64,000 nucleotides of DNA from Solirubrobacteraceae bacterium (GTDB lineage Bacteria > Actinomycetota > Thermoleophilia > Solirubrobacterales > Solirubrobacteraceae), in NCBI GenBank assembly GCA_037724045.1, contig JBBJOW010000007.1, forward strand, positions 7,324-71,323, given 5' to 3'. Below are positions 7,560-22,905 of this stretch, piece by piece. Within the stretch, counting starts at the first letter, position 1; every line of letters begins with the position of its first letter. Below the pieces are notes generated by a model. The model was not told the DNA's origin. It saw only the letters and a list, made by a program, of their open reading frames with translations, and searched no databases. The position numbers and the translations under genes were made by a program.

Positions 7560-7701
7560 GAGTCGATGTCAGTGCTGCCGCAGCATCTCGGGCATTGAAC
7601 TGACCGTGATCGATGGCCGCTCCGACTCTGACTTCCGAGCCCATCTCCAGGACGGCTTGCACGGAGGTTTCGTACCCATCCCGAGCGCCCCGGAGGCCTT
7701 C

Positions 7702-8106
7702 TCACAGAGAAGCGCGATGGCGACGAGCGGCGATTCGGACGATCAGCCAACGTGAGAGGGCGCCGGCAGCGGTGATTGCGGCGCCACAGATCCCGGCGAA
7801 CAGGAAGATGCTCTCATCGATACAGGGATCTCCACAGGGCGTCGGTTCTTCCCAGAGCACGCTGATGATCGGGCTGGCCAAGACGGCGCCACCGAGAACC
7901 GGCGTCCACCAGCGCTCGCCGAGGGCGCCGATCGCGAGAAGCGCGGCGACAAGCATCGCGTAGATCAGCGTCGAGCCTTCACGGCCGTCGGAGACGAGTA
8001 GTCCCCACAAAGCCGCGACGGCAACGAGAACGGCAGCGAAGCAGGCCCAGGGGCGTCCGAGCGGCGAGGGTCTTCCTGATCGAAGCCCGCTCATGCGTTC
8101 AGTCAA
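7702..8106 (-). CDS. Hypothetical integral membrane protein
   Basis: Several hydrophobic segments (CFAAVLVAVAALWGLLV, LIYAMLVAALLAIGALG, IFLFAGICGAAITAAGAL). No family recognised. Confidence 0.45.
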   Translation of the reverse strand: MTERMSGLRSGRPSPLGRPWACFAAVLVAVAALWGLLVSDGREGSTLIYAMLVAALLAIGALGERWWTPVLGGAVLASPIISVLWEEPTPCGDPCIDESIFLFAGICGAAITAAGALSRWLIVRIAARRHRASL

Positions 8107-8195
8107 GCATGGTCAATTGATGCCCGTTTGATGCCCGTCGCGCAGCAGCCCACTCCGCACCAAAGACAAGAACGCAGCTGTAGCCCGATTCTCGA

Positions 8196-8241
8196 CAGGG
8201 AGGGCGACGGGACTCGAACCCGCGACCGCCGGGATCACAAC
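8196..8241 (-). repeat. att core repeat (partial 3' copy of tRNA-His)
   Basis: CAGGGAGGGCGACGGGACTCGAACCCGCGACCGCCGGGATCACAAC is identical to 22829-22874. It covers the tRNA from the anticodon loop to the 3' end but lacks the 5' half. Confidence 0.9.
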
Positions 8242-8288
8242 ACCCCCCGGCGGTTCGGCACGGTTCGGTCTAGCTAGGCGGTTTGGCT

Positions 8289-9614
8289 CTACGCCGCGAC
8301 ATTTCGCAGTAGCGCGTAGTCGGCTTCAGCCTCACCGAACGGGGCCGATGTTGCCAGTTTTGTTGCCACCCCCGTGTCTACCTTGGTGGACAACTCGGCG
8401 TCGAGGTCGAGCGCGTCGGCCTGGTCGTCGTCGAGCAGATGCACGTACGTCGAGAGCGTGAACGCCGCCGAATGGTGCCCCAGCGTCCGCTGTACCTGCT
8501 TCGCGTTCGCTCCGCGCTCGAACAGCATGGACGCCATCGTGTGCCGGAACGTGTGGAAGCCGGCCCACGAGGCGCCGGCCTCCTCGGCCGCGGGCTTGAG
8601 CACGCGCCGGCGGACGTTGGACACGTTCAGCGACTGCCCATTGAGCGACGGGAACACGAGGTCGTCATCGCCGGGGTACTCCGTCGCCTTGCGGTGCGCG
8701 CGCAGCTCGTCCACGAGCGCCGCAGGGATGCCGACGTCCCGGCGGGACTGCTTCGTCTTCGGCGGGCCGACCCTGCCGCGGACGATGCCGCGGCGGACCT
8801 TGACGTGCGGCCGGGAGCCGTCGAGCTGCAGGTGCCGCCATTGCAACGCGACGACCTCGCTGACCCGGAGCCCGGTCGCGGCGAGCAGCCGGAACATGAC
8901 CCGGTGCCGGCGGTCGACGACGAGCAGGAACGCGGCGAGCTGCTCGCGCGTGAACGCACGCACCGGCCCGTCCTCAAGTTCGTCGTCGACCTTCGGCCGG
9001 TTCGGTAGCTGCGCGCCGTCTGCGGGGTTGTGGCGGATCAGACCCTCCCGCCGCGCGGTGCTCAGGCAAGCGCGCAGCGGGCAGAGCACGTTGCGGACCG
9101 TCTTGTCCGACAGGACCTTCACGGCGTCGTCGGCGAGCGGCCTGGGCGGCTTTGACCGGCGTCCTTCGTCGGTCGCCTTCTCGTGCGCGCGGACGGCGAG
9201 CCTGTACGTGTGCTCGGCCTGGGCGCGGCCGTCGCAGAGCCACCCGACGAACCGGGCGACGTGCAACGGCGTCAACTCGACGAGCTTGAGCTTCGCCGGG
9301 AAGTGCTCGAGCGGGTAGAGCTCGAGCAGCCCGCGGTAGTCCTCGCGGGTCTGGTCACGGAAGCCGCGCTGGCCGCCCTGGTAACGGTCGATCCATTCGC
9401 GGACGTACTCGTGGAGGGTCTGACGGCTCGCGCCGGCCAGCTCCCCCGAGTCTCGCTGAGCGGTGCGCCTCGCCTTCAGGCGCCTCGCTTCGTCGTATGT
9501 GCGGGCGCTCTCCTTGCGCTGGCGGCCGTCCGCGTCGCGGTAGACGATCACGTAGCGGCCGCCGCGCTTGAAGATGCCCGGCGCCTTCGTCTTCTCCATC
9601 GTGGGCGCCGGCAT
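8289..9614 (-). CDS. int: Tyrosine recombinase / phage integrase
   Basis: MPAPTMEKTKAPGIFKRGGRYVIVYRD (SAM-like N-terminal domain)...TGLRVSEVVALQW...AGFHTFRHTMASMLFERG...LGHHSAAFTLSTYVHL, showing the R..HxxR..Y catalytic pattern. I chose the ATG at 9614. Confidence 0.9.
   Translation of the reverse strand: MPAPTMEKTKAPGIFKRGGRYVIVYRDADGRQRKESARTYDEARRLKARRTAQRDSGELAGASRQTLHEYVREWIDRYQGGQRGFRDQTREDYRGLLELYPLEHFPAKLKLVELTPLHVARFVGWLCDGRAQAEHTYRLAVRAHEKATDEGRRSKPPRPLADDAVKVLSDKTVRNVLCPLRACLSTARREGLIRHNPADGAQLPNRPKVDDELEDGPVRAFTREQLAAFLLVVDRRHRVMFRLLAATGLRVSEVVALQWRHLQLDGSRPHVKVRRGIVRGRVGPPKTKQSRRDVGIPAALVDELRAHRKATEYPGDDDLVFPSLNGQSLNVSNVRRRVLKPAAEEAGASWAGFHTFRHTMASMLFERGANAKQVQRTLGHHSAAFTLSTYVHLLDDDQADALDLDAELSTKVDTGVATKLATSAPFGEAEADYALLRNVAA
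8348..8371 (+). repeat. Putative integrase arm-type site (GTTGCCA x2)
   Basis: ATGTTGCCAGTTTTGTTGCCACCC matches 22738-22761 at 23 of 24 positions, in the same orientation. It lies 106 bp from the att core and inside the integrase 3' end. Confidence 0.4.
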
Positions 9615-9814
9615 CAGGCGCCCCTCAGCGCGACGACGTTCTCCGGTGTCGCCGCGTCCACCGGAATCGGAGCGCGATTCGGCAAACACTCCGCGAACCG
9701 CTTCAGACTGGTCCAGAGAGTGTCGTCGAAGCCGTGCGCCTCGTACTCGAGCCGCGCCGCCTCCATGAGGGCGCGGCGGGCGGTCTCCATCGGGTGCTCC
9801 CGGGGTTCGGGCAT
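9614..9814 (-). CDS. Small hypothetical protein, translationally coupled to integrase
   Basis: MPEPREHPMETARRALMEAARLEYEAHGFDDTLW.... A TGATG stop/start overlap occurs at both ends (9612-9616 and 9812-9816). Confidence 0.45.
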   Translation of the reverse strand: MPEPREHPMETARRALMEAARLEYEAHGFDDTLWTSLKRFAECLPNRAPIPVDAATPENVVALRGA

Positions 9815-10134
9815 CAGGACGCCTCCGGCAGCCGCACGAAGCGGGTATCGCCCTCGAAATCGCGCCACGCCCAGTCGGGCAGGCCGTCGTCGATGTGGAC
9901 TGACCAGGACTCCCCGTCCTTCGCAAGCGCGGCGTCGACTGTGGCGACGATCTCGTCGCGAGTCATACCCGCACCTTCGGCGGTGAGCGCGGCGTAGCCG
10001 AGCATCGTCACTGCGGTGTAGGCCTCACCGCGAGCCTGGGCGCTGCGCCGGCTCGCACACGCCTCACACCACGCCTCGGTGTAGTGGCCGGTGAGCAAGT
10101 GCGTGGCCGACGCGAAGCAGGACCCGCACTTCAT
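9814..10134 (-). CDS. Small zinc-ribbon protein (CxxC...CxxC)
   Basis: MKCGSCFASATHLLTGHYTEAWCEACASRR.... ATGA overlap with the upstream ORF at 10131-10134. Confidence 0.5.
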   Translation of the reverse strand: MKCGSCFASATHLLTGHYTEAWCEACASRRSAQARGEAYTAVTMLGYAALTAEGAGMTRDEIVATVDAALAKDGESWSVHIDDGLPDWAWRDFEGDTRFVRLPEAS

Positions 10135-10538
10135 GCCGACGCCTCCGGCGACGCCGCTGCGTGGTATGCCTCGAGAGCCTCGGCGCGGTCCGCGAGAACC
10201 CGGATCTTCGGCGGGTCGAGGTCGCCGCCCTCCTCGCCGAGATCGACGGTGTAGATCCAGTTCACGGCCTCCTTCGCGAGAACGCGATGGATGTCGTCGC
10301 GGGTGGTCAGTTCGACGTCCTGTTCGTGGTCTCGTGGCTCCCAGCCGAGTTGGTCGAGAGTCACCGCGTGCGCCATCAGTTCGCGGTGAAGATCTGCGCG
10401 TCCATGAGGGTCGTCGACTCGTTCCGCGATCGTGTCGGCCGTCTGCGCGTACAGCCAGTAGGCCTGGTGCCGGACGTGGGGCACTGCGAGGGCGGAGAGC
10501 GAGATCTTGACCTCTCGCGTCGGTGTAGTGGTGGTCAT
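10131..10538 (-). CDS. Acidic hypothetical protein
   Basis: ORF 10131..10538 has ATGA overlap with the upstream gene and coding-like third-position GC. No family recognised. Confidence 0.55.
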   Translation of the reverse strand: MTTTTPTREVKISLSALAVPHVRHQAYWLYAQTADTIAERVDDPHGRADLHRELMAHAVTLDQLGWEPRDHEQDVELTTRDDIHRVLAKEAVNWIYTVDLGEEGGDLDPPKIRVLADRAEALEAYHAAASPEASA

Positions 10539-10957
10539 CGGTTCGTCGCCTCAACCTGCGCGACGGTGTCGTGCATCTGGTCGCGCAGCCCGTGGCCGAC
10601 GAACGCCCTCACGGTCGCCTCGCGAGTGATCCCGCCGTAGCTCACACAGTCGACGTCGAGCATTGCCGCGATCACCTGCTCAGCCATCACCCGCGACACC
10701 ATGATCTCCGTGTCCTCCGCCACTTCGCCCCAGCCGATGGCGTCGAGCACGTCGCGGCGGACCGTGACCAGGTCGAGGAACGCCTCAAGGTCATCGCGTG
10801 TCTCGATGTCTGACGGGCTCTCGAGGTCGGCCTCCACCTCTCCGCGCCAGACGTCGGCGAAGTGCTTCGCCGCCTCCGGGCTGAGGCGTAACGTGACGAC
10901 GTCCCTAGGTTGGTCCGCGAACGCCTTGGTCCGGGCCTTGGTCGTGCTTGTGGTCAC
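10535..10957 (-). CDS. Acidic hypothetical protein
   Basis: GTG start at 10957 is preceded by GAAGGAGGAGCAA (a strong RBS). VTTSTTKARTKAFADQPRDVVTLRLSPEAAKHF.... Confidence 0.55.
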   Translation of the reverse strand: MTTSTTKARTKAFADQPRDVVTLRLSPEAAKHFADVWRGEVEADLESPSDIETRDDLEAFLDLVTVRRDVLDAIGWGEVAEDTEIMVSRVMAEQVIAAMLDVDCVSYGGITREATVRAFVGHGLRDQMHDTVAQVEATNR

Positions 10958-11165
10958 TTGCTCCTCCTTCGGCTGAGGCTCCGAAGGGTTCGCCTGTGAC
11001 GAGAGGCCCACGCCGCCTGGTTGGGTAGCGTGCGCGCCGCATCGAAGGTTCTGTCTTCGGTGCCATGCCCCCGGGCCGTTTGCGCGGTCGCGGGGGCGAT
11101 TTGGTTGACGCGGCGGACGGTAGCGAAGCGACGCCGCGCGCGCAAGCCCAGGGACGCCGGGGTCC

Positions 11166-11453
11166 TCACGAGTCGTCGCCTTCGACGTAGGGCTTGAGCA
11201 GGTCAACACCCTTGTAGTTGAGCGTCGTCGAGCCGAGGTCTATGTGGTGGCCCTCTGCTTCCAGACGCGCCACCAGCTCTACCTGGCCCAGATGCACGGC
11301 CCGGATCGCGATCCGGGCAACGGCCCCGTACAGCGGGTCGTCGGGGTCGCCGAGGTCGTGGCTCGACAGGCCGCCGCGACTCAGCTCCTCGGAGAAGATC
11401 CGAGCGAGCTGCTGCTCCACGAAGTTCGGGGGCTCATCCGCTTCGTCGTTCAT
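11166..11453 (-). CDS. Hypothetical protein
   Basis: ORF has ATGA overlap with the preceding tape-measure C-terminal ORF. No family recognised. Confidence 0.5.
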   Translation of the reverse strand: MNDEADEPPNFVEQQLARIFSEELSRGGLSSHDLGDPDDPLYGAVARIAIRAVHLGQVELVARLEAEGHHIDLGSTTLNYKGVDLLKPYVEGDDS

Positions 11454-12028
11454 GCCTGGTGCCTGATGTCGCCGTCGACCTGGAAGACCTTCTTGTGCAG
11501 GACGCGCTTGTCGAGCGGCTGGTTCTCAATGGTCGTCGAGAGTTCGATGACCGTCCGTCGCGGGAGCACGGTGCGCAACGAGCGCGGGGAGGGTTCCGAG
11601 TTTGTCGGCGTGGGGCGAAGCATCCGAGACGTTTGGCCCGCGGTGAAGACTCGCGAGCCCATCGGCAGGGCCGCGAGCTCGGGGCCCTGCTCGCCGACGA
11701 TCTGCAGCGGCGAGCGGACGACGCCGCCGGCCGCGAAGCCAGCCAGCCCGAGCAGGCTGTTCTTCGGAAATATGCCGCTGCCGCCGTCGCTTTGGCCGGG
11801 GACGATCGAGAGCGGGTTCTTCGCCACCTTGTCAGCCAACGCGATCGCGTCCTGCGAGAACCGAACCACGTCCTTGAGGGCGTTGATGAGCCACGCGATC
11901 TTTGGGCGAAGCCAGTCGATGGCGCCGCCGACGAACTGCTTGATGTCGCGGCCGGCGTTCATGGCCCACTCACCGGCCTTCTTCAGCGCCGCCCACACCT
12001 GATCGACCTTTCGTTCGGAAGGCGTCAT
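11450..12028 (-). CDS. Tape-measure protein C-terminal segment (separate frame)
   Basis: ...[33 protein letters not shown] resembles the conserved GE.GPE...P.GS.V block near tape-measure C-termini. It overlaps ORF 11970..13631 by 59 nt in another frame. Confidence 0.6.
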
Positions 12029-13631
12029 TCTTCTTGTAGGCGATCACGACGCCGGCCGCCAGGGCAGCGATAGCCACGACGATCAGCCCGATCGGGTTCG
12101 CGGTCAGCGCCGCGTTGAGCAGCCACTGGACACCAGCCCACACCTTCGTGGCGGCGGCCACGGCATTCGTCGCAACCGTATAGGTGATCGTCGCCGCTGC
12201 CTGGCTCCGCAACACCCTGCCGAGAGCGCTCGTTGCATCGGTGAAACCCAGGACCTTGTTGACGGCCATAGCCCCGATGAGGACCGTGATCGCAGCGCTC
12301 GCTCCGGGGACCGTGTTCGTCAGCCAAGCCGACGCCTTGGCCAGCGCGCTCAAGGCCTTGACGTACAGGATCATCGGACCCGACGACCCGAACAGCGGCT
12401 CCATCGCCGCCGCGAGATTCGTGATCGCGGAGACCAACGTCGGCCCGAACGCCTTCGTGGTCCCGCCGACGACCCTCGTCAACACCGGCAGCAGCTCGGT
12501 CCGGATCTGCTTGATCATCGGCGCGAGACTCGACGCGCCGCCGCCGAGACTCCCGAACGACTTGCCGACGGAACCGATCAGCTTGGCGAGCTCATAGACC
12601 GCCGGTTTCGCCTCAGCGAACCACGTTTTCAGCGAGTTCTGGCCGCGCATCGAACCGGTCCACTTCGCGAACCGGCCGGCCGCAGCGTCGATCGACGCGA
12701 GCAGCTCACCGCCGAGACTCGACCCGGCCCGGCCAATGTTCAACAGGCCCCGGGCGACGCTGCCGGTGATCGAGAACAGCCGCGACAGGACGTCACGGGT
12801 CTTCTCGAAGAACGCCGCCAGCTTGCCCGTCTCGCGGCCCGTTCTCGCAGCGGCCTGGATGTTGCGTCCCCAGACCCCCGCGAGGCGAGTCATCCAATCC
12901 ACCAGCGGCCCGGCAGCGATGACGACGTGGCGGAGAGCGTCGCCGAGCCGCAGCCCGGTGCCGCCGAGGCGGCGGATGGTGAGGTTGTTGCGGCCCAGCT
13001 GCTTCTCGAGGTCTTGGCCGAATCCCTTGGAGCCGATGAGCTTTCCGGCGCGCTCGGCGAGCATCCCGATCGACTTGCCGGTGGCGGCCATCCCGGTCCG
13101 GAGGACGCCGAGGTTCCCTGACGCGGCTTTCAGGCCCGCGGTGAGGCCCGGGAACATGCCGCGCTGGATCTGCTTCTGAATGTCGATGACGGGCGCCTTG
13201 AGGCCCTGGAGGACACGAGCGAACCGGCGAGCGGGTGGCGTCAGCGCCGCGAGCTTGTCCGGGTCGAGCTTGTCGTTGAGTCCGCCGACGGCATCGGTGA
13301 CGCCGGCGATGCCGAGCTGGAACGTGGCGAGGCCCTGCTGAGCCGCGGACGCTATCGCCGGGTACGCCGCGAGCGCACCGGCTGCGGGTGCGACCCCGGC
13401 CGCCAACGCGACCCCGCCCGCCGCGGCGGCTGACATCGACTGCGCGAGGAGTCCGACGCCGGTGATCAGTGCGGCTGGCATCACCAGCTTCCGGGTGCTG
13501 CCCACGACACGGTTGACCCGCTCGCCCTCGTCGCCGATGCCGCGCAGCCCGCCCGCGGCCTTGTCGGCGTCACGCTCAAACGAGCGGGCACCTAGCAAGC
13601 GAAGTCTGATTGTTGCCGAACTCTCAGCCAT
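11970..13631 (-). CDS. Phage tail tape-measure protein (main part)
   Basis: 553 aa, Ala/Gly/Leu-rich and helical: [24 protein letters not shown]...[41 protein letters not shown].... It has C-terminal hydrophobic segments, as in the TP901-type tape-measure core. Confidence 0.8.
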
Positions 13632-14121
13632 GGAGGTCGTCCAGCAGCCGATCGAGGGTGCTCTTGCGGCCGATGACCCAGCTCATGATCTCGTCGGCGA
13701 ACACGTTGAGGCGATCCTCGTTACCGAGGACGCGCCGGATGACTTCGGACGTCGACATCTCGGGACGGCCCATTACCTCCGCGACGCCGCGCCAACCGTG
13801 GCGCACCTCCATCCAGTCCTCGCCCTTGCGCAACAGGACCGCGTCAGTCGAATGGGCGACGATCTTCACAGCGGTGCTGCGGTCGTCGCTCTTCGGCGCC
13901 TTCGCCCGCACTCGAAGCGTGTCCCAGCCGGGCACGTCGAACGTCTGGACGCTGTCGGTGTCGAGCTTCGCGAGCCCGGCCTCCAGCACCGAGGCCAGGT
14001 CCTCCCCGGTCGCGCCCTCCTGCGTGACAGCGCAGGCTATGTCAGCCGCCGTCGTCATGCCGGTCGTCGGCGTCGCCGCCGTCAGCGGGATTCCCGTGCT
14101 TGCCGTCGTCAGGTCAGTCAT
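13624..14121 (-). CDS. Hypothetical protein between terminase and tape measure
   Basis: ATG at 14121 is preceded by AAGGAGATAACG (RBS). Its stop overlaps the tape-measure start. At 166 aa it is too small to be a portal. Confidence 0.5.
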
Positions 14122-14147
14122 CGTTATCTCCTTCGTTTGGGTCATGG

Positions 14148-15653
14148 TCAGAGTCGGGTGATGCGGTAGTCCTCGAGCGTCGCCTGCGGCCTGGTCGGCG
14201 CCTGGTCGACGCCCCACATGGCCAACGTGCCGGCGACCAGCGGCGTGACGTCGGCCCGCGAGGCGCGACGCGACCACAACCACGCATCGCCGAGCGGCCG
14301 GATGCTCGCGCCCTCGATCGCCGCCGAGAGCTCGGGCGTGCCCGTATGGCGCACCAGGCCCTGCTCGACCCGGTCGATCAGTTGCCCGCACGCCTCGGCG
14401 TGCTGCTGGGCGCCAACCGGCTCGAGTGTGACGCCGGCATCCGCGAGGCCGCGTACGAGAGCGGCAGTCGGGCTCTTCTCGGCGTACCGGAAGCCGGTCG
14501 AGTCGTGCGCGGCCTGCAGATCAGCCGCGCGCTGCGCTACCCACCCGCAGCCGGGACGGTGCTCGACGACCTCGACGTGCACGAGGCCGTCCGGCCCGGT
14601 GCCGGCGGCCGCGATCGCAGCCGACGACCGGTCGGGGTGAACGTCGATCGCGAAGCTCACCCGTCCCGTGATCGTCGACGTGGAGTCCACCAGCGCCGCC
14701 CAGACGGCGCTCGCGATGATCGCCTCCTCGTCCTCTTCGTCGTCGACGGGACCGGGCCAGTCGCCAATGCCGAGCCGCTCAACCGCGAACGTCCGCCGGC
14801 TGAGCGTCGCCCGCTCCGCGCGGACCGCGTCGAGCGTCATCCGCCCGCCCAAACCGGGGTTGCCCTGCGCCCACGCGTCGACGTCGTCAATGACGTCGTC
14901 AAGGGCATCGAGCGACCCCGGTGCGGAGTGCTCGACGTAGCCGAGCTGAGTCTCCCCGCCCGCCAGCGCCCGGCGGCGGACGCTCGAGAAGGCGTGCCCA
15001 TCCGCGTGGACGGCCCTGTCGACCGCCGAGCCGACGTACGCGATCTGCGCGTTCGGCCGGGCGCTGACAACCGGCAGCAACGCACCCATGACGATTTCCG
15101 GGAGAAACATCGCCTCGTCGAGCGCCAGGAAGTCGCCGCCGAGGCCACGGCCGGCGCCGCCCTTCGTCCTCGCCCGATACTTCAATCGCTGCCCGCCGCT
15201 GACGCGCCGGCCGGTCGGCCCGTGAAGCTCGATCCCCTCGTCGCCGTTCGCGGTCCTCATCGACTTCACCCGGCGCGACAACTCCGGGGTGCCCTCAATC
15301 AGCGCGCGCATCCGACGGAACGCCTCCAGCGCCGTCCCGAACAAGTGCGCCGAATGCACCAAGTCGCGCTCGCCGAAGAGAAACAGGCCCGCGAGCTCGC
15401 GGATCTCGAGCACGACGCCCTTCCCTGACTGGCGGGGGACGCACAGGCCGTACTCGCGGCACGCCCACGCCCCATCCTCGCGCTCGCAAAGCATCGCCGC
15501 GACGGCGGTCTCCTCCCACGGCTCAGGCTCGATACCGGCGACCCTCGCGAGCTCGAGCGCCTCACGGGTCGCCTCCGCGGACCGGCCGGCGTCGTGTGGC
15601 GGCAAATAGAGCAGCCGCGGCTCCTGCACGCCGGTGATGGGCTCAGCCAGCAC
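14148..15653 (-). CDS. terL: Terminase large subunit
   Basis: VPRQSGKGVVLE (Walker A-like), DFLALDEAMF (Walker B), and an RNaseH-like C-terminal nuclease region. GTG start at 15653 overlaps the upstream ORF. Confidence 0.82.
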   Translation of the reverse strand: MLAEPITGVQEPRLLYLPPHDAGRSAEATREALELARVAGIEPEPWEETAVAAMLCEREDGAWACREYGLCVPRQSGKGVVLEIRELAGLFLFGERDLVHSAHLFGTALEAFRRMRALIEGTPELSRRVKSMRTANGDEGIELHGPTGRRVSGGQRLKYRARTKGGAGRGLGGDFLALDEAMFLPEIVMGALLPVVSARPNAQIAYVGSAVDRAVHADGHAFSSVRRRALAGGETQLGYVEHSAPGSLDALDDVIDDVDAWAQGNPGLGGRMTLDAVRAERATLSRRTFAVERLGIGDWPGPVDDEEDEEAIIASAVWAALVDSTSTITGRVSFAIDVHPDRSSAAIAAAGTGPDGLVHVEVVEHRPGCGWVAQRAADLQAAHDSTGFRYAEKSPTAALVRGLADAGVTLEPVGAQQHAEACGQLIDRVEQGLVRHTGTPELSAAIEGASIRPLGDAWLWSRRASRADVTPLVAGTLAMWGVDQAPTRPQATLEDYRITRL

Positions 15654-16026
15654 GGCGCAGCTCCCTCGCGCGCGCCAACTCGTCGACCCGATCGGCCTCG
15701 GTTGCCGGCGGCGCCAGCTCCCGCAACCGGTCGACGCTCTCCCGCAACTCGCGGTGAAGAGCGGCCTTCGACGTCGCCGAATTGTACGGGTGCGCAATCT
15801 CGAACGCGAGGGCGACGATCCCAGCCGCCAACGGCGAGTCCGCCAGGACCGCATCGCGCTCGCGGATGGCTTCGACCTCGCGCAACGCAGCGTCGATGAC
15901 GTCCGTGCGCGCGTTGTCGGCCAGCGGCCCGTCGAACATCTCGCGGGCGGCATCGACGGGCATCTCCACCAGCGCCCGGCTGTTGAACGGGCCGAACACG
16001 CTCACCACGCGCGCATCCTTAGACAC
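15643..16026 (-). CDS. Putative terminase small subunit / packaging accessory protein
   Basis: Called mainly on position, immediately upstream of and overlapping terL. It is helical and 127 aa long. GAGGAGG lies upstream of GTG 16026. No decisive motif. Confidence 0.4.
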   Translation of the reverse strand: MSKDARVVSVFGPFNSRALVEMPVDAAREMFDGPLADNARTDVIDAALREVEAIRERDAVLADSPLAAGIVALAFEIAHPYNSATSKAALHRELRESVDRLRELAPPATEADRVDELARARELRRAG

Positions 16027-16351
16027 GACCCCTCCTCGCGACGCAGCCGGCGCACGAGCACACGAACCACTCGCATGACCAGGCACGGTGCACGAGCTCG
16101 GCCGGCGACAGATTCACGCCCGCTGCGACCGGCAGCTTCTCCCGGTTGCAGCCGCGGTGAGCCGGCCCGAGGTACAGCGACCTGTCCGCGTCGTCATGGT
16201 CGAGGTCCCACGGCTCAGCAGGCCCGATCAGCCGGCCGCAACGAGAGCACGCCACCGTCCCCGCAGCCACCTTCGGCGCCCATTGCGCGCGCAACCGCTT
16301 GTGCGCCGCTCCGTAGCCACGAGCGGCCGTCTTCGCGAGGCCTTGCGTCAC
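16019..16351 (-). CDS. HNH endonuclease
   Basis: GYGAAHKRLRAQWAPKVAAGTVACSRCGRLIGPAEPWDLDHDDADRSLYLGPAHRGCN shows CxxC plus the D-H...H..CN HNH pattern typical of phage HNH next to terminase. The start is uncertain (GTG 16351). Confidence 0.75.
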   Translation of the reverse strand: MTQGLAKTAARGYGAAHKRLRAQWAPKVAAGTVACSRCGRLIGPAEPWDLDHDDADRSLYLGPAHRGCNREKLPVAAGVNLSPAELVHRAWSCEWFVCSCAGCVARRGRV

Positions 16352-16640
16352 CGCACGGCACCTATGTGGCGACTTCTGAGCGCCGCAGAGAGAGGGAACG
16401 ACTGCGGAGTCGCGGCCAGTGCCGCTGGTCCGGGACGGGACCCTCCCCCCTGGGGTCGAGTGTGGGGATGGGGGGATGCCGTGCCGGGGGCGTTGACGTC
16501 GGCGGTGATCAGGAACCGGGTGTCGGTGTTCGTCGGCGCGCCAGACGGGTTCCTCGACGCGCTCGCTGCGGCCACCGGTAAGAGTCGTCCGGAGCTGAAG
16601 TTTCGCCGGCAGTTCGCGGAGCGCTTCCCGACCACCGAGG

Positions 16641-16701
16641 CATTGGCTACGGCCGTAGCCAATGTGGCGAACCGCCCGGACGTCGACGGACGTCCGGGCG
16701 G
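16641..16701. other. Structured non-coding DNA (24-bp perfect palindrome + 13-bp-stem hairpin); candidate cos/pac or terminator region
   Basis: CATTGGCTACGGCCGTAGCCAATG (16641-16664) is a perfect palindrome. CCGCCCGGACGTC-gacg-GACGTCCGGGCGG (16672-16701) forms a hairpin. Both lie in the 453-bp gap between the capsid and HNH genes. Confidence 0.35.
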
Positions 16702-16804
16702 CTCGAGTCCCCCGCGACCGCGACTGCACGAATGCAATCGCGGCGCCTTCCCGGCGGTAAGGAGGGTCCGCCGGTGAAGATTGTGGTCGGTGGTCCGCAT
16801 CGCG

Positions 16805-18154
16805 CTACGCCAGTGCGACCTTCGAGAACGCGGCCGGGTAGTAGACGGCCAGCGCGGCGCGTAATTCGGCCAAGATAGTCACCTTGTTAAAGGTGAAGTC
16901 CTGGCCGTCCGCATCGCTGACGAGCACGTTCACGCCCTCCCGGATGAGCAGCTGCGCACCGATCTGAAAGGCGCCGACGAGGGCAGTGCCTTCTGGGATG
17001 GCGGCGGTCGTGATGACGGGGACGCCCCACATCCGTTCGCCGGTGACGTCGAAGGGACCGTTGGAGAAGTAGTCCCCGGAGCCGGCGGACTTGAGCAGCA
17101 GTGACTTCTTCCAGTCGAGCGGGTTGAGGATGATGGCGTTGGGGTCGGCGCCGGCAACCTTGACCTGGGTGATGCCGCTGAGGATTTGCTCGGTCGGCAG
17201 GTTCCCGGCGGTGAACGCGACTACGCCGACGCCGGGCGTGGTCAGGATGCCCTGGATGTTCGGGGTCGTGCCGTTGCCGGCGAGGATCTCGGCCTGGAGC
17301 CGGCGGGCGACGCCGTAGCGCAGGCGGTTCTCGAGGACGCTCGCGAACGCAGGGACGTCGGCGAGCACCTGCTTGCGGACTTTGAACCAGTGCGCGATCG
17401 TCGCTGCTTCGGCGTTGGCATCGGTGTAGACGCCGACGCCTTCGGGCTTGAGTGTGCCCTCCGTCGTTTCGGCGGCGGTGTCAAACGAGCCGTTCTCAAC
17501 GGTGTACGGGACCGAGCTGCCTTCCATGGTGCCGGTCGCGATGACGTCGAGGACGGTGAGCTGTTGGCGTAGCTGGGGTGCGACTCCGCCGTAGTCGTCG
17601 CGGCGCATATTCGGGGTGCCGGTGATGTCGGCCTTGAAGGCGTCGCGGGCGGCGTCGGCGCTGGCGATCTCACCGAGCGCGATTCGGCCGACGCGGGCGC
17701 TGCTGTTGCCAGCCTTGCGGATCTGGTCGCGCAGCGCCGGGTCCTCGAGCACCTTGCCGGCGGCCCACTTGCCGTCGCTGTCGGCGGGGTCTGTGCTCGA
17801 GAGCTTCTTGAGCAGCTCGACCTGCAGCTCCTGAGCGATGCTCAGGCGAGCCTCAGCGTCCTTGACGTCCTTGACGGCAGCCGCTGCGGTCTTGAACTCG
17901 GGGCTGCCGGTCCGCTCGCCCCCGTCGACGTAGGCCTTCCGAGTCTGGTCGGCGGTGGTCTGCTTGGACTTGATCTCATCCCGGAGGTTGCGGACGTCCT
18001 GCTCGGTGTCCTTGAACTGCTTGCTGAGGTGTTTGTCGTCGTGGAGGCAGGTCGGACCGTTGGAGCGCTCGATGCGTCCGGTGATCGCCGGCCAGGTCGG
18101 CGCGAGGAGCTCGGCGAGCTCGAGCGCGGCGGTGAGGTTGCGGTTGGTGGTCAT
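16805..18154 (-). CDS. HK97-family major capsid protein with N-terminal coiled-coil (scaffold/delta-like) domain
   Basis: N-terminal charged helical region (DVRNLRDEIKSKQTTADQTRKAY...AEARLSIAQELQVELLKKL). This is followed by LTVLDVIATGTMEGSSVPY...ATIAHWFKVRKQVLADVP...ILNPLDWKKSLLLKSAGSGDYF...MWGVPVITTAAIPEGTALVGAF, typical of HK97 capsids. Confidence 0.88.
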   Translation of the reverse strand: MTTNRNLTAALELAELLAPTWPAITGRIERSNGPTCLHDDKHLSKQFKDTEQDVRNLRDEIKSKQTTADQTRKAYVDGGERTGSPEFKTAAAAVKDVKDAEARLSIAQELQVELLKKLSSTDPADSDGKWAAGKVLEDPALRDQIRKAGNSSARVGRIALGEIASADAARDAFKADITGTPNMRRDDYGGVAPQLRQQLTVLDVIATGTMEGSSVPYTVENGSFDTAAETTEGTLKPEGVGVYTDANAEAATIAHWFKVRKQVLADVPAFASVLENRLRYGVARRLQAEILAGNGTTPNIQGILTTPGVGVVAFTAGNLPTEQILSGITQVKVAGADPNAIILNPLDWKKSLLLKSAGSGDYFSNGPFDVTGERMWGVPVITTAAIPEGTALVGAFQIGAQLLIREGVNVLVSDADGQDFTFNKVTILAELRAALAVYYPAAFSKVALA

Positions 18155-18156
18155 GC

Positions 18157-18525
18157 TCAGGCCTCCTGGCCGTTGGTGGTGTGGGTGGCTGCCTCGAGCA
18201 GGTCGTCGAGGCGATGACCGCGCGCCAACAGGGCGGCGGTGATGTACTCAGTGAGGTGGGCGTCGGCTTCGTGGCCGAGCATCTGCGCGCGGCCGATCTC
18301 GTCGCGGCGCCCGATCGCGTCGTCGAGGTCGATCTCGCCGTGGTGCAGACTGAGCGCAAGGTCGGCGGCGGCCTGCAGGATCGTGGCGGTGTGCCTGGTG
18401 AGACCTTGCTGGATCGATGAGATCCGTTCGAACTCGACATCGTCGAGCTTCGCCGGGTCTTCCGGCAGAGTGCCGAGCGCGTCGACGACGAACTCCAGCG
18501 GGTCGGCGAGGGTGGTCTGGTTCAT
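18157..18525 (-). CDS. Hypothetical protein
   Basis: ORF ends 3 nt before the capsid start. Acidic and helical. No family recognised. Confidence 0.5.
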   Translation of the reverse strand: MNQTTLADPLEFVVDALGTLPEDPAKLDDVEFERISSIQQGLTRHTATILQAAADLALSLHHGEIDLDDAIGRRDEIGRAQMLGHEADAHLTEYITAALLARGHRLDDLLEAATHTTNGQEA

Positions 18526-18782
18526 GCGGCCTCCTGGGCTTGGTCGTGGTTCAGGTGTTCACGGATGGCGGCTCGGACGGCGCCGGCCGCGGCGTTCTGC
18601 GTCTCGCGGTCGGCGATGGCGCGGAGGCCGCGGATGACGACGAGCCCACGGTCTTCATGGGCGACAAGGGTCACGAGGCGCCCGTTGGCGAGACGGACGT
18701 CGAGGTCTGCGATCAGCTTGCCGCGGTGCTCGGCGAAGCGTGACCACGCCACAAGGGCCGGCGGTGCGAGGGTCGTCGTCAC
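18522..18782 (-). CDS. Hypothetical protein
   Basis: GTG 18782 gives a GTGA overlap with the upstream gene, and there is an ATGA overlap downstream. Confidence 0.42.
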   Translation of the reverse strand: MTTTLAPPALVAWSRFAEHRGKLIADLDVRLANGRLVTLVAHEDRGLVVIRGLRAIADRETQNAAAGAVRAAIREHLNHDQAQEAA

Positions 18783-19819
18783 GCGCTGGCCTCGTCGGAA
18801 GTAACGAGGTAACGGCCGGTAACGACCTCTACGCACGAGGCAGTGGCCTCTTCTCGCGCACGTAATAACCCTGTACCTGCCGTTACCTCGTTACCTGGCC
18901 AGTCTGCCGGCACGAGGAAAAACGACCAGTTGAGAGTCCCGCCGAAACCGGGCTGTGTGGCCTTGACCCGGCCGCTGGCGTTGGGCTTGGTCCAGCCAAC
19001 GCGAAGCAGGCGCTGAGCGATCTTGCCTTCGCTGAGTCCCGGCTCGCGGCCGCGGACGAACCCATACATGTGACCGCTGCGCACGAAGCGCACCCCGGCA
19101 CTGTCGACGAGAACCATCGTCATGGCGGCGCCGGCCTCCTCGCGAGCATTGTCGAGCGACCGGAGATCGCTGAACGCCTCCCAGCGGTCCGCCTGGTCGC
19201 TCATGTCGACCGGCCGCGTCTGGGCAGCCTGGAGGTAGCTCTGGCCCCAGTCGAGGGCGAGGTCGTCGTCGGAGACGGTCTGCTGCCGCCGTGCGACCTG
19301 TCGCAGCAGTGCGACGGCTTGGAGGGCGTCGGCAGCCGTGATCTTCGGCACGACGCCGGCGCACGCTGCAAGCTCGGCTCGCAGGACCGTGAGATGCGCC
19401 ATCTCCCTGAGGGATTCGAACTCCAGCCACTCGCCGTTCGAGAGCTCGAGCTGGGCGCTCGCTCTGGCGCCTTGACCGGTTGTGACCGCGGACTTGACGG
19501 TCATGCCCATGACGGTCAGGCCGAGCAGGTCGGCAAGCTTGGCTCCCGCCTCGTCGGCACCGAGTTCAACCACTTGCGCCGCGACTTGGCCGGCGGGCCG
19601 CGCTTTGGCTTCAGCCCGGTCGAGATCGTCCGCGATGCGCGCGGCGTCGCACTGCGAACACGAAATGGTGATGCCGTCCAAGGCCGCGACGGCCGTCAGC
19701 TCGCCCGGGCAGCTCGGACAAGTCGTGCTGAGGCTGCCGTTCTCGCCGACGTAGACGCGGCCGGAGCGGCGCAGCTGGTCGCGGAAGTCGTCGAGCGTGA
19801 GGCCGAACGAGCGGCTCAT
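18779..19819 (-). CDS. Zinc-ribbon protein, possible replication/initiation partner of the Top6A-like protein
   Basis: MSRSFGLTLDDFRDQLRRSG...TTCPSCPGELTAV...ISCSQCDAARI (CxxC...CxxC). ATGA overlap with the upstream Top6A-like gene. I recognise no primase or helicase motifs. Confidence 0.55.
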   Translation of the reverse strand: MSRSFGLTLDDFRDQLRRSGRVYVGENGSLSTTCPSCPGELTAVAALDGITISCSQCDAARIADDLDRAEAKARPAGQVAAQVVELGADEAGAKLADLLGLTVMGMTVKSAVTTGQGARASAQLELSNGEWLEFESLREMAHLTVLRAELAACAGVVPKITAADALQAVALLRQVARRQQTVSDDDLALDWGQSYLQAAQTRPVDMSDQADRWEAFSDLRSLDNAREEAGAAMTMVLVDSAGVRFVRSGHMYGFVRGREPGLSEGKIAQRLLRVGWTKPNASGRVKATQPGFGGTLNWSFFLVPADWPGNEVTAGTGLLRAREEATASCVEVVTGRYLVTSDEASA

Positions 19820-20745
19820 CCGACGGGCCCTCCAGACGGGAGGCCGAGCAGTTCGGCGCGATCGAGGTGCTCGCGCCGGATCTCTTCTCGGTAGCGATGG
19901 ACGTCCAGGGTGTCCTCGATCGCATCCCGGACCAGAGCGGCCAGCATGTCGGGCGGCAGCGCCTCCAACTGGCACGTCCCGCCATCCCAGCCACGAGAGC
20001 GACCGTCGCTCGCCTTCACGGGCGACGTCGGCAGCGAGAACACGTCCACTTGCTCTCTCGTCAGGGCCACTCGTATGGCATCCAGCCGGGTCGTCTGGAC
20101 CGTTCGATCCTCGCGAACGAACGCCGAAGCATCCTCGGCGATGGCAGCGAAGATCGACTCTCCCGACGGGTCGTAGTCGCCGACGTGCAACATGACCGTC
20201 GGGACGCTCGACCGCAGCGCCCGGTTGGCGAGCGTCCTCACCGCCGACAACGATGCGAAGCCACTGGCCGAGTACACGGGGACGCTGAAGTCCTCCGCGA
20301 CCCGGGCGAGTTGCCCGACCATGCCGGCCGCCTCGCTCCAGAGCTCCAGCCGCTGGGGCTGACCGGCCTGCCGGTCGCGCCGGTACTCGCGAGCGCGACG
20401 AGCAGTGTCGTCGCGGAAGTCCGCGACGCTGCCGTAGTAGTCGGCGTGCATCGTCATCACGCCGTCGTCGCGGATCGCGTCAAACGGAAGCACCTTCGCG
20501 CGCCGCGCCCGGTTCAGATGCTCTCCGAGGCGTGCGTAGGCCTGCTCGGTCTTGTCCAGCTTCCCGGCGCCGACCAGCGAGTAGTAGATCTGCCTCACCG
20601 TCAACGGGAGATGGTCTTCATAGCGCCGGAGAACGTCCTCTACATCGAGTAGAAGCTCGCGGGTCGGCGCGTGCGGACTCCAATCGGCATAGCCACGCGG
20701 ACGCCGCCGCCCAGCACTTTCACGGCCCGCCGTGACAAGGGTCAT
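19816..20745 (-). CDS. Standalone Spo11/TopoVI subunit A-like protein (5Y-CAP + Toprim; 'Mini-A'-like)
   Basis: LTVRQIYYSLV (R-x-I-Y-Y catalytic-tyrosine motif of Top6A/Spo11), LELWSEAAGM (Toprim acidic residue), and MLHVGDYDPSGESIF (Toprim D-x-D-P-x-G-x-x-I motif). It is 309 aa, and no B-subunit/GHKL gene is nearby. Confidence 0.7.
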   Translation of the reverse strand: MTLVTAGRESAGRRRPRGYADWSPHAPTRELLLDVEDVLRRYEDHLPLTVRQIYYSLVGAGKLDKTEQAYARLGEHLNRARRAKVLPFDAIRDDGVMTMHADYYGSVADFRDDTARRAREYRRDRQAGQPQRLELWSEAAGMVGQLARVAEDFSVPVYSASGFASLSAVRTLANRALRSSVPTVMLHVGDYDPSGESIFAAIAEDASAFVREDRTVQTTRLDAIRVALTREQVDVFSLPTSPVKASDGRSRGWDGGTCQLEALPPDMLAALVRDAIEDTLDVHRYREEIRREHLDRAELLGLPSGGPVG

Positions 20746-21005
20746 GCGGCGACTCGAAGGTAGCCGTCGAGATCTTCGCGCCGGTACAGGTTTCTCGCGC
20801 CGTCCTTGTAGACGGCCAAATGCCCTTGGCTCGTGAGGTCAAAGACGCGCTGGCGGCTGGCCCGGAGGTACTCGGCGGCCTCATCCGTCGTCAGCCACGG
20901 GGTGCTGATTCGGGTCGCGACGGCCGAGGACGTCAGGCCGCGACGCTCGAGCTCATCGGCGACGGCCGCTGCGATCGCGGCGGCGATGTCCACTGGCGGG
21001 CTCAT
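20742..21005 (-). CDS. Excisionase-family (MerR-like HTH_17) DNA-binding protein
   Basis: WLTTDEAAEYLRASRQRVFDLTSQGHLAVYKDGARNLYRREDLDGYL. Confidence 0.75.
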   Translation of the reverse strand: MSPPVDIAAAIAAAVADELERRGLTSSAVATRISTPWLTTDEAAEYLRASRQRVFDLTSQGHLAVYKDGARNLYRREDLDGYLRVAA

Positions 21006-21069
21006 GCCGGCGCCTCGACATCATCGGGATGAAGGCGCCCTTGCGGCGCCTCGGACGTCGGCCCGCCCC

Positions 21070-21303
21070 TCACGCACCCCCTGCAGCACGGCGCTTGTCG
21101 GCGAACAGGTCGTGGAGTTCATCGGTGAGTCGCGAGACGGTGACCTCAACCGGGACGCCGACCTCGGACCACGCTTCGTGTCGGAGCCTCGCCGCTCGCT
21201 CAATGCCGCGGCGAGCCTCGCGGCGCTCACGACTCGGCGTCTGCTTCTGCTTTCGCTTGGGCTTGACCGATCGGAAGCCCGGCTGCGCGTTGTGCTGCTC
21301 CAT
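21070..21303 (-). CDS. Small basic hypothetical protein
   Basis: ORF abuts the stop of the upstream gene (21304). Lys/Arg-rich N-terminus. Confidence 0.4.
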   Translation of the reverse strand: MEQHNAQPGFRSVKPKRKQKQTPSRERREARRGIERAARLRHEAWSEVGVPVEVTVSRLTDELHDLFADKRRAAGGA

Positions 21304-21882
21304 TTACGTCCAGTCGAATCCGTTCTCCTCAGCGATGGCGCTGAGCCGGCTCGAGTCCAAGGCGTCGTCGCCTACCAAGAGGCTGAGTGTGCCGAGGTAT
21401 ACGCGGGCTAGGCCCGCCTCGCCTGTCAGGAAGACCGTCGCTCCGATAGCTGAATGGTGTTCGACGAGAAGCTGAAGATCTAGAGCCACGGCGTCCTCGT
21501 CATGACCGGGGACGAACCCCCCGAGGAAGGCCTGGGCCGTCATTGTCTCCCAGCGCGCCGGGATGCGAGACACCGCACCGCTCGGCAGAACCTCCACTGC
21601 CTCATCTAGTTCGGTGTGGCCGGTGCCGCGCAGCACGATCCGCGCGGGCTCGAGGTCTCCGATGTGCCCTGCCTCGAGCACCTGGCGGAGCAGTTCGCTC
21701 CAGGCGCCAACGTCCGCTGCAATCTCAGGCTCCAGCCTCTGGCGTTCGTTGTGAATGGCCACTCGAACGGCCTCGCTGCCGGACACCTTGCTGCGCGTCC
21801 GGCGCTGCATGTGGCGGCGAGTCTCGTCGGTCTCGCTAAGGGTGTCCTCGCCAAAGCGATAGTTGGTGATCGGTGTGGCCAC
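21304..21882 (-). CDS. Hypothetical protein (first gene leftward of the divergent control region)
   Basis: GTG 21882 with AGGA upstream. VATPITNYRFGEDTLSETDETRRHMQRRTRSKVSGSEAVRVAIHNERQRLE.... No family recognised. Confidence 0.5.
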   Translation of the reverse strand: MATPITNYRFGEDTLSETDETRRHMQRRTRSKVSGSEAVRVAIHNERQRLEPEIAADVGAWSELLRQVLEAGHIGDLEPARIVLRGTGHTELDEAVEVLPSGAVSRIPARWETMTAQAFLGGFVPGHDEDAVALDLQLLVEHHSAIGATVFLTGEAGLARVYLGTLSLLVGDDALDSSRLSAIAEENGFDWT

Positions 21883-22051
21883 GCCCGAGATCCTACCACA
21901 GCCCGTAAAGACAGGCAGCCACACTGCGCGATCTGAGGCACCTGGACCGTTGACAGGCCGACACGCACGCGCGTCGGCGCGCACAAAATTGTCCAGCAAA
22001 ACGGGTCAAATTTGCGTAGCGCTAGCGGCTATCTCGCTAGGGTCGGAAGCG

Positions 22052-22300
22052 GTGAAACGGAATCCCGTCCGCTACAAGCAGAACGGCGACAAGCGACCCT
22101 CTGTCAAGGACCAGGCCCTCGACGCCCTTATCGAAGAGGCCTGGAATCAGGAGTGGGGATGCCGCGTCGGCGGTAATAAGCACGTCATGTGCTACCCGCC
22201 CGACGGAAGCCGAATGATCCCGATTCCGTCGACACCGAGCGACTGGCGCACGGTCAAGAACAAGGCCGCCCAGATGAAACGCGGCGGCCTGGAGATCTAG
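22052..22300 (+). CDS. HicA/YcfA-like small protein (tentative)
   Basis: ...WGCRVGGNKHVMCYPPDGSRMIPIPSTPSDWRTVKNKAAQMKRGGLEI resembles the HicA pattern G-x-H-x(3-6)-P...P.H...gt...i.k..g. It is the only plus-strand gene in the island. Confidence 0.38.
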   Translation: MKRNPVRYKQNGDKRPSVKDQALDALIEEAWNQEWGCRVGGNKHVMCYPPDGSRMIPIPSTPSDWRTVKNKAAQMKRGGLEI

Positions 22301-22623
22301 GCCGCGGTGACCGGCTGCGCCACGATCTGCTGATCGTGAAGAGTCTGCACCGGGAGGTGCTTCTCGACCTCCGCCATGACCTCCGAAACGCGCCTGTTGA
22401 CGATCGACGCGCTGACGGCCGGAATGAGAAGGTCGATCTCCACCGACGCCGGATCGAACGCGCACGACGCCGACGCGCCGAAATGCTCGCCGTAGCCGTG
22501 CTCGCACATGACCTCCTCAAGCGCGATCGTGAACTCCTCGAGCTCGTCGTTGCTTACGCCGCTCGGCGGCGTGAGCGCGATCGTCACCTGGTAGGTGCTG
22601 ACGGTGGAGAGGGTCGCCGGCAT
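22297..22623 (-). CDS. Hypothetical protein
   Basis: 108-aa ORF with good coding bias, convergent with the HicA-like ORF. No family recognised. Confidence 0.5.
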   Translation of the reverse strand: MPATLSTVSTYQVTIALTPPSGVSNDELEEFTIALEEVMCEHGYGEHFGASASCAFDPASVEIDLLIPAVSASIVNRRVSEVMAEVEKHLPVQTLHDQQIVAQPVTAA

Positions 22624-22737
22624 AGAGGGGATGTTAGGTCATGGATCGGCCCTGACGCGCCGACCCTGTAGTGCGTCAACGTACCCGGCAACACTCGATA
22701 TATCAACTGGCCGCCGAAACGCGGCGCCAGCGTGGAC

Positions 22738-22761
22738 ATGTTGCCAGTTTCGTTGCCACCC
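22738..22761 (+). repeat. Putative integrase arm-type site (GTTGCCA x2)
   Basis: ATGTTGCCAGTTTCGTTGCCACCC lies 67 bp from the att core and is the partner of 8348-8371. Confidence 0.4.
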
Positions 22762-22828
22762 GCACCACATTCCCCCCATTGGGGGAACGCCTAGAACGGC
22801 GAGAACCGCGCCGTAGCGCGGTCCTCTG

Positions 22829-22874
22829 CAGGGAGGGCGACGGGACTCGAACCCGCGACCGCCGGGATCACAAC
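22829..22874 (-). repeat. att core repeat inside the intact tRNA-His
   Basis: Identical to 8196-8241. Confidence 0.9.
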
Positions 22875-22905
22875 CCGGAGCTCTACCGACTGAGCTACGC
22901 CCTCC
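22832..22905 (-). tRNA. tRNA-His (anticodon GTG), with encoded G-1
   Basis: Reverse complement G-GAGGGCG-TA-GCTC-AGTCGGTA-GAGC-T-CCGGG-TTGTGAT-CCCGG-CGGTC-GCGGG-TTCGAGT-CCCGT-CGCCCTC-C folds as a cloverleaf. The extra 5' G pairs with C73. CCA is not encoded. Confidence 0.95.

Follow-up and report, generated by a model that had tools for sequence, protein, structure and literature searches.

A tRNA-His island of a Solirubrobacteraceae bacterium with its own capsid, terminase and tape measure genes and no recognisable portal: a candidate helper-dependent phage satellite

Phage-inducible chromosomal islands of the capsid-forming kind (cf-PICIs) form capsids of their own and also encode their terminases, and the portal, the head maturation protease and the connectors are core parts of these elements (PMC10690885, PMC10085698). 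The Streptomyces satellites MulchRoom and MiniFlayer carry genes for a capsid, a portal, terminases, an HNH protein, a scaffold and an adaptor. The PLEs of Vibrio cholerae (elements that resemble phage-inducible chromosomal islands) build chimeric tails from their own tape measure protein (TMP), tail assembly chaperone (TAC) and hub BhuB, and deleting the PLE tmp gene lowers transduction by 96-99.9% (PMC12987554). Putative tmp genes have also been noted in some cf-PICIs (PMC12987554, Extended Data Fig. 10). The EPIPs, which are satellites of the Mycolicibacterium aichiense prophage HerbertWM, encode a capsid and a TMP and have altered tail lengths (PMC12822802, preprint). Small islands of mycobacteria that combine an integrase with a capsid gene, including phiRv1 and phiRv2, are candidate PICIs for which helper dependence has been proposed only (PMC10654092, PMC10085698). 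Here we compare these systems with an island of about 14.6 kb at a tRNA-His gene in a 64,000-nt stretch (hereafter the window) of contig JBBJOW010000007.1, which comes from a metagenome-assembled genome (MAG) of a Solirubrobacteraceae bacterium, class Thermoleophilia.

The island carries genes for an HK97-family capsid protein, an HNH endonuclease, a terminase large subunit (TerL) and a TMP. We favor the reading that it is an integrative, helper-dependent phage satellite of this bacterium, to which we give a probability of roughly 0.6. The likeliest case is a satellite that belongs to a new variant type, with capsid, HNH, terminase and TMP genes but without a portal or protease gene. We regard its novelty as moderate, because each ingredient has published precedent. 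A full-text search of the literature returned no paper linking Solirubrobacter, prophages and satellites.

The island resembles cf-PICIs in being a small integrative element bounded by attachment (att) repeats (14.6 kb, compared to about 10-15 kb for cf-PICIs), in having a tyrosine integrase, an AlpA/HTH_17-type regulator (whose role is predicted) and a putative replication module, and in encoding its own HK97 capsid, HNH and TerL proteins with no tail tube and no lysis genes. It differs from them in lacking a portal, a maturation protease and recognizable connectors, in carrying a TMP gene, which is a tail gene, and in having its integrase at the opposite end from the regulator. Because it has neither portal nor protease and does have a tail gene, we have not filed it as a cf-PICI; in head and packaging logic it probably resembles them. 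Tail and holin genes are forbidden in the SatelliteFinder cf-PICI model (PMC10085698), and an island of this kind should fail it on account of its tail gene.

As in the PLEs, a TMP of a length unlike that of phage TMPs is encoded by the island itself, and by analogy this length suggests that it may substitute for the helper's ruler in helper-built tails. Two small relatives extend the likeness: locus L028 has a TMP gene without capsid genes, and locus L011 has a weak baseplate-hub match after its TMP gene. There is, however, no sequence relationship to PLEs, and the tails of the island's helper would be of the siphovirus type rather than contractile. Capsid and terminase are the island's own, while PLEs rely on capsid proteins of the helper; moreover, the island's TMP gene is frameshifted, and we identified no TAC or baseplate hub in the window. 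A preliminary description, made from the sequence without database searches, had called an island-encoded TMP unusual, which overstated the case, as satellite TMPs are documented in PLEs, some cf-PICIs and EPIPs.

Compared by gene description only, EPIPs share with the island an actinobacterial host, a small size (11-15 kb), a major capsid protein and a TMP, with no portal in the authors' gene list (PMC12822802). They differ in having a serine integrase, a small terminase subunit (TerS) without TerL, an adaptor, a stopper and a scaffold, whereas the island has a tyrosine integrase, HNH, TerL and no recognizable connectors. The mycobacterial candidate PICIs are likewise small actinobacterial islands, and those with a tyrosine integrase lie at tRNA genes. 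The present island differs from them in its host class, Thermoleophilia, in its capsid and terminase lineages, and in the addition of HNH, TerL and TMP genes.

Boundaries, gene content and missing functions

The edges of the island are marked by a direct repeat that is exact over 46 bp, with identity stopping at both edges. ARAGORN and Rfam both identified the gene at the right-hand copy as tRNA-His(gtg), and the repeat runs from tRNA position 31, in the anticodon stem/loop, to 2 nt beyond the tRNA 3' end. The repeat and tRNA searches thus bear out the preliminary description, in which exact 46-bp repeats duplicate the 3' part of tRNA-His. When up to 3 mismatches were allowed, a 33-nt part of the repeat occurred at these two sites only in the 64-kb window, with no third copy of the core, and 0 of 100 shuffles gave a match. 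The repeats lie 14,633 bp apart, which sets the size of the island at about 14.6 kb. Cellular genes flank the island (trigger factor, fructosamine kinase, low-molecular-weight phosphatase and thiolase), and the GC content of the island is 68.5%, versus 70.6% for the whole window. The heptamer GTTGCCA occurs six times in the window, and four of the six copies form two pairs adjoining the two att cores (Table 1). One pair on each side of the core is the layout expected of arm-type integrase sites, for which we consider these pairs candidates. Beyond the exact core, we observed a further 34 nt of resemblance, giving 85% identity across 80 nt in total. This extension pairs the chromosomal flank (8162-8195) with the inner right end of the island (22795-22828), and a copy of what lies downstream of the tRNA may be present in the attP of the island.

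Table 1. Features of the island, in order of their position in the window
Feature	Position	Strand	Matches and remarks
attL core	8196-8241		Displaced 3' part of tRNA-His; exact 46-bp direct repeat
Tyrosine integrase, 441 aa from MPAPTMEK	8289-9614	-	PF00589 2.5e-23; phrog_1 8.9e-68
GTTGCCA heptamer pair	8348-8371 (8350/8362, 12 bp apart)	+	Candidate arm-type integrase sites, integrase side of core
106-aa ORF, CxxC...CxxC motifs	9814-10134	-	No match in PHROGs, NCBIfam or PADLOC
135-aa ORF	10131-10538	-	No HMM-library match
140-aa ORF	10535-10957	-	35% identity to 125-aa ORF near L011 integrase
95-aa ORF	11166-11453	-	No HMM-library match
TMP, C-terminal part	11450-12028	-	+1 frame relative to N-terminal part; weak TMP matches phrog_19914, phrog_1535
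TMP, N-terminal part, 553 aa	11970-13631	-	phrog_4197 1e-25; phrog_6090 7e-25
173-aa ORF between TerL and TMP	13624-14145	-	Position suits tail assembly chaperone (candidate)
Terminase large subunit (TerL), 501 aa	14148-15653	-	phrog_9 1e-49; no Pfam match
Candidate small terminase/packaging-specificity protein	15643-16029	-	Assigned by position only (between HNH and TerL)
HNH endonuclease, ~110 aa	16019-16351	-	phrog_1808 1.2e-14; 62% identity to L011 HNH
~450-bp stretch without convincing minus-strand gene	16352-16804		Between capsid and HNH genes
HK97-family major capsid protein, 449 aa	16805-18154	-	PF05065 5.6e-32; phrog_10 4.7e-41
122-aa acidic helical ORF upstream of capsid gene	18157-18525	-	No HMM-library match
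ORF of ~86-104 aa	18522-18836	-	No HMM-library match
346-aa protein, N-terminal zinc ribbon	18779-19819	-	Marker of rare small integrase islands
Top6A/Toprim-like protein, 309 aa	19816-20745	-	phrog_6247 'DNA topoisomerase' 1.5e-39; NCBIfam TopoVI-A 0.004; phage homologs exist
HTH_17 (AlpA/Xis/MerR-type) DNA-binding protein, 87 aa	20742-21005	-	PF12728 1.8e-10; excisionase PHROGs
168-aa ORF	21304-21810	-	No HMM-library match
HicA-like toxin gene	22052-22300 (about)	+	PADLOC PDLC02910 1.1e-9; accessory gene
108-aa ORF	22297-22623	-	No HMM-library or PADLOC match
Second GTTGCCA heptamer pair	22738-22761 (22740/22752, 12 bp apart)	+	Candidate arm-type sites, other side of core
attR core	22829-22874		Inside intact tRNA-His gene (22831-22904, minus strand)

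Pfam and PHROGs matches back the capsid, HNH and TerL genes named in the preliminary description, and Pfam, PHROGs and NCBIfam hidden Markov models (HMMs) do the same for the integrase, HTH_17 and Top6A-like genes. Its picture of packed ORFs, all on the minus strand, holds for most of the island but not for the plus-strand HicA-like gene or for a stretch of about 450 bp that separates the capsid gene from HNH. The capsid protein retains 74 of 74 invariant columns of a 13-member alignment. Its N-terminal extension of about 190 aa is common to those phage homologs that adjoin a protease gene, suggesting that the island capsid may need such a protease. TerL retains 97 of 97 columns that are invariant in a 16-member alignment, RQxGK and DEA among them, and belongs to a family with 897 homologs. 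A precomputed Pfam domain was absent from all 120 family members listed (of 897 matches in total); because these members have no Pfam domain, annotation based on Pfam would miss such terminases.

The ORF between HNH and TerL is 72% identical to the ORF in the same position in L011, and its one phage homolog (in L012) sits downstream of TerL. HMM libraries, a PDB profile search and tblastn against phages revealed no homology of this ORF to known TerS proteins, so the label "tentative" that the assignment carried from the outset fits its positional basis. The stretch between the capsid and HNH genes contains a 20-bp perfect palindrome, TTGGCTACGGCCGTAGCCAA, at 16643-16662 and an inverted repeat with an 11-bp stem, CCGCCCGGACG...CGTCCGGGCGG, at 16672-16701. 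This stretch could be a cos site, an operator or other regulatory region, or a terminator. We also noted in it a possible small plus-strand ORF, ending at 16777, with a weakly coding pattern of GC at third codon positions.

Searches of the 64-kb window with Pfam, PHROGs and NCBIfam gave no match to a portal, a prohead protease, a tail tube, a baseplate or a lysis protein. A more stringent test used family-specific profiles. A custom portal HMM was built from 77 portals encoded downstream of TerL genes of the same family in IMG/VR contigs and was run without speed filters on six-frame ORFs of at least 40 aa from the whole window and from the related small loci. The best E-value in the whole window was 0.96; as a positive control, the true portal of the related locus L040 was detected at 8e-103. 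HMMs for S49 proteases, S78 proteases and tail tubes, made from related phages, were also negative on the window, and the small island ORFs gave no library match by which head-tail connectors could be recognized. The portal, protease, tail and lysis functions listed as absent in the preliminary description are thus still missing after profile searches and family-specific HMMs.

The same description had found no remaining ORF large enough for a portal. Among the unassigned ORFs, the 346-aa zinc-ribbon protein alone has the length for one; neither its AlphaFold2 (AF2) model nor the structure searches gave a portal fold, and we rejected this protein as a portal. The protein has 8 homologs among 5.8 billion proteins in a word-indexed search, plus 24 metagenome loci, and its conserved core spans aa 95-310. 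The AF2 model, built with the eight homologs, has a pLDDT of 72 overall and of 80-90 within the conserved core. There was no PDB match at E<=0.001; the only viral match, in BFVD, was a weak one to a "DNA primase small subunit" (E 3.7e-5, TM 0.27), and from this model the protein is possibly primase-like. The Top6A-like protein is probably part of a replication module, and no canonical primase-replicase was found among the island genes.

The split tape measure gene of the preliminary description proved to be a gene of about 726 codons with a single +1 frame change near 12010-12020, and the accompanying caveat about decay stands, since the gene is frameshifted. The N-terminal part matched 14 TMP families in PHROGs in all and is 32% identical to the 2,075-aa TMP of L009. 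Before the two parts were rejoined, most alignments with viral TMPs ended at 539-540; after they were rejoined at aa 539, high-scoring segment pairs to 13 viral TMP loci crossed the junction. As the alignments run through it, we conclude that the ancestral gene encoded about 726 aa. A short inverted repeat, CCTTTCGTTCGGAAGG (plus strand, 12007-12022), lies exactly at the frameshift site, probably by chance, because the region has fewer terminator-like matches than its shuffles.

Relatives in phages and in small integrative elements

Capsid homologs with 41-48% identity belong to full phages, in which the capsid gene adjoins portal and protease genes and the order is TerL, portal, protease, capsid, tube and then a TMP of 1,650-1,770 aa. 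The closest capsids, at about 50% identity, are found in two small elements, L007 and L009, and the portal HMM detected no portal in either contig. L007 contains capsid, HNH, integrase and HTH_17 genes, and L009 contains an integrase, two small ORFs, the 2,075-aa TMP gene and then the capsid gene. In L009 (2523-10124 of a 15-kb contig), the TMP gene lies directly upstream of the capsid gene, an order unlike that of any ordinary phage. A neighbor-joining tree weakly groups the island capsid with those of L007 and L009.

Members of the TerL family that lie in phages are about 50% identical to the island protein or less. Among IMG/VR loci with a TerL of the same family and enough downstream sequence, 50 of 51 had a portal gene downstream of TerL; the exception, L069, has a 588-aa gene where the portal would be expected. 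The closest relative of the island TerL is that of L011, with 69% identity, and the others reach at most 53% among the matches listed. The genes of L011 are ordered HNH, TerS candidate, TerL, three small ORFs, a 624-aa TMP, a 480-aa ORF, small ORFs and integrase. This layout is portal-less and compact like that of the island, although the L011 TMP belongs to a different family. In both loci TerL is followed by small ORFs, then the TMP gene and then the integrase, where phages have the portal. The 480-aa ORF of L011 (5893-7335) gave a weak match to the baseplate-hub family phrog_196 (0.0035) and no Pfam match, and by eye it contains lytic-transglycosylase-like and NlpC/P60-like (DCSG) motifs. 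By analogy with the PLE protein BhuB, it may be a tail-tip lysin or hub.

A second independent small element was found through the 346-aa protein. L028 (7738-17484) is a complete island of 9.75 kb between exact 19-bp repeats, AGAGAACCAGCTCTTCTAG, one of which is at the 3' end of prs (ribose-phosphate pyrophosphokinase) and the other after the integrase gene. It encodes a homolog of the 346-aa protein (59% identity), a ribbon-helix-helix protein, a 574-aa TMP (PF20155), a helix-hairpin-helix protein and the integrase, and it is without capsid or terminase. L028 also encodes a 284-aa ORF that looks coiled-coil by eye. Among other loci with the 346-aa marker, L031 and L056 have a different capsid, L040 has a portal and a protease-capsid fusion, and L035 has a different terminase.

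The phages nearest to the island by capsid have an unrelated TerL, and those nearest by TerL have a distant capsid. Because capsid and TerL point to different phages, we conclude that the island is a mosaic, not a trimmed single phage.

Further searches added little. A tblastx comparison of phage loci with the window gave noise only in this 70% GC DNA, and blastp on ORFs was used instead. A single-protein capsid scan of GTDB genomes found nothing, and a scan of the same genomes with the alignment of the 346-aa family turned up one short Solirubrobacterales MAG contig. An exact-sequence look-up of four island ORFs gave nothing informative on NCBI's treatment of the split TMP. In single-sequence scans of IMG/VR, the island TerL found one distant TerL (27%) and the TMP found a shared C-terminal TMP motif. 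In one related phage, L005 (6419-8902), the portal gene contains an intein, with Intein_splicing and LAGLIDADG domains nested in Phage_portal (precomputed Pfam).

Proposed helper dependence and competing explanations

The gene set and the boundaries can be read directly from the DNA; the mechanism we infer from them, and dependence on a helper is deduced solely from the missing functions. In the proposed cycle, a helper siphophage would infect the cell or be induced, and the island would be excised by its integrase and the HTH_17 protein and replicated by the Top6A-like and 346-aa proteins. The island capsid protein would then assemble on the helper portal and be matured by the helper protease into heads that are probably small, sized for about 14.6 kb. 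The HNH protein, the TerS candidate and TerL would package the island's DNA, using a cos-type site that may lie in the stretch between the capsid and HNH genes. The island TMP (about 726 aa, with a predicted tail near 110 nm) would replace the much longer TMP of the helper, as PLE TMPs do, and the helper would provide the remaining tail parts, lysis and all else.

The strongest competitor is a decaying prophage, in which a temperate siphophage integrated at tRNA-His has been stripped, by deletions and rearrangement, of portal, protease, head-tail, tail and lysis genes and the surviving genes have no role in transfer. A frameshifted TMP gene is what one would expect of such a remnant, as are structural genes that all have phage relatives at 40-53% identity, the failure to see a helper phage, and the odd order with the capsid gene upstream of HNH. 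We nevertheless consider it unlikely. A single deletion cannot yield the gene order of the island, and the capsid and TerL stem from different phage lineages. The genes are tightly packed with one broken only, TerL and the capsid retain every invariant residue, and the att region has an exact core and preserved arm sites. In addition, the independent elements L011 and L028 are also small and have their TMP gene near the integrase, and their TMPs are not orthologous to that of the island. Together with the 50/51 portal statistic and the closest capsids, which lie in small elements with no portal detected, L011 and L028 indicate at the level of gene layout that this arrangement is not a one-off deletion. 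The preliminary description had left the choice between a satellite and a reduced prophage. Its satellite alternative fits better, given that the functions stay missing and given L011, L028 and the L007/L009 pair; its stress on an unusual TMP went too far.

A second alternative is that the capsid, terminase and TMP homologs act mainly as decoys or poisons against phages and that virions do not transfer the island. Functions that interfere with assembly are frequent in satellites and islands; Rta of PLE11 blocks helper tail assembly via the helper's tape measure (PMC12987554), and tail assembly interference is called a common defense strategy in PMC11364771. A HicA-like toxin gene lies within the island as well. 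We think this explanation improbable, as an HNH protein with a small partner ORF and a TerL whose ATPase-nuclease is intact suit self-packaging, whereas interference needs none of them, and PADLOC found no defense system except HicA. Least probable is an autonomous, very small temperate phage whose portal, tail and lysis proteins have diverged beyond recognition, because, even with about 10 ORFs of no assigned function to draw on, the roughly 1,300 leftover residues are too few for a portal, connectors, tube, tip, fibers, holin and endolysin, the 346-aa candidate is without a portal fold, the family-specific portal HMM was negative, and the island, at 14.6 kb, has none of the portal, tube/tip, lysis cassette and genome of at least 30 kb of an intact temperate phage.

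Two other classes of element were considered and rejected. A conjugative element (an integrative and conjugative element, ICE, or its actinomycete form, AICE) was set aside as Pfam and PHROGs searches gave no FtsK/Tra or relaxase match, and a gene transfer agent was set aside because such agents have neither an integrase nor att sites, both of which the island possesses.

Several points weigh against a helper-dependent satellite. The 64-kb window shows no helper phage, and a capsid and terminase that work with another element's portal are plausible but make heavy demands. Excision, replication and packaging are predictions from gene content, and the TerS, the cos site, the replication proteins and the tail chaperone are putative assignments made by position or weak similarity only. 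About 10 small ORFs could hide connectors or other virion parts. The TMP frameshift is either decay or an assembly error; with the frame of the gene changed by one base, this copy may be impaired in the tail step and may be defective through its split TMP. The grouping of the island capsid with those of L007 and L009 has only 56% bootstrap support. The lineage is rare, with one close TerL relative, so that its conservation rests on few, mostly incomplete contigs, and the evidence as a whole is one MAG and a few incomplete metagenomic relatives.

Tentatively, and at somewhat less than even odds, the Solirubrobacterales may host a previously unrecognized modular satellite lineage, in which a shared small replicon with the 346-aa marker is combined with interchangeable hijacking modules. 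The modules would be a TMP only in L028 (9.75 kb), a capsid on the short contigs L031 and L056, and capsid, HNH, terminase and TMP in the island. In this view, the island would combine its own capsid on a stolen portal with its own terminase and a short TMP that re-rules the helper tail, a combination that neither cf-PICIs nor PLEs show.

If active, the island would extend phage satellites to the Thermoleophilia, a class of abundant soil actinobacteria, and would represent a division of labor in which shell, packaging motor and tail ruler are self-encoded while portal, protease, tube, tip and lysis functions are taken from the helper. It raises the structural question of how the capsid and terminase of a satellite recognize a foreign portal, and the question of how general TMP substitution is, which has so far been demonstrated experimentally only in Vibrio PLEs. 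Such elements are likely undercounted or filed as defective prophages.

Unassigned ORFs, accessory genes and the left flank

The ORFs left after the assigned genes, apart from the 346-aa protein and the 173-aa chaperone candidate, are each 168 aa or shorter. The 173-aa ORF has about 18 representative homologs among 1.84 billion proteins; searches with its family profile in the PDB, with family members in PHROGs and with the family in IMG/VR gave nothing. Its AF2 model, made without an alignment, had a pLDDT of 44 and was unusable.

The HicA-like gene converges on the 108-aa minus-strand ORF, and a HicB partner was not identified; PADLOC reported no other defense system in the island. Rfam, promoter and terminator scans gave nothing useful beyond the tRNA.

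Outside the island, between attL and the trigger factor region, three minus-strand ORFs (229, 169 and 134 aa) without a Pfam match occupy 6551-8106. They may be ORFans of the host or what is left of an earlier insertion into that tRNA-His gene.

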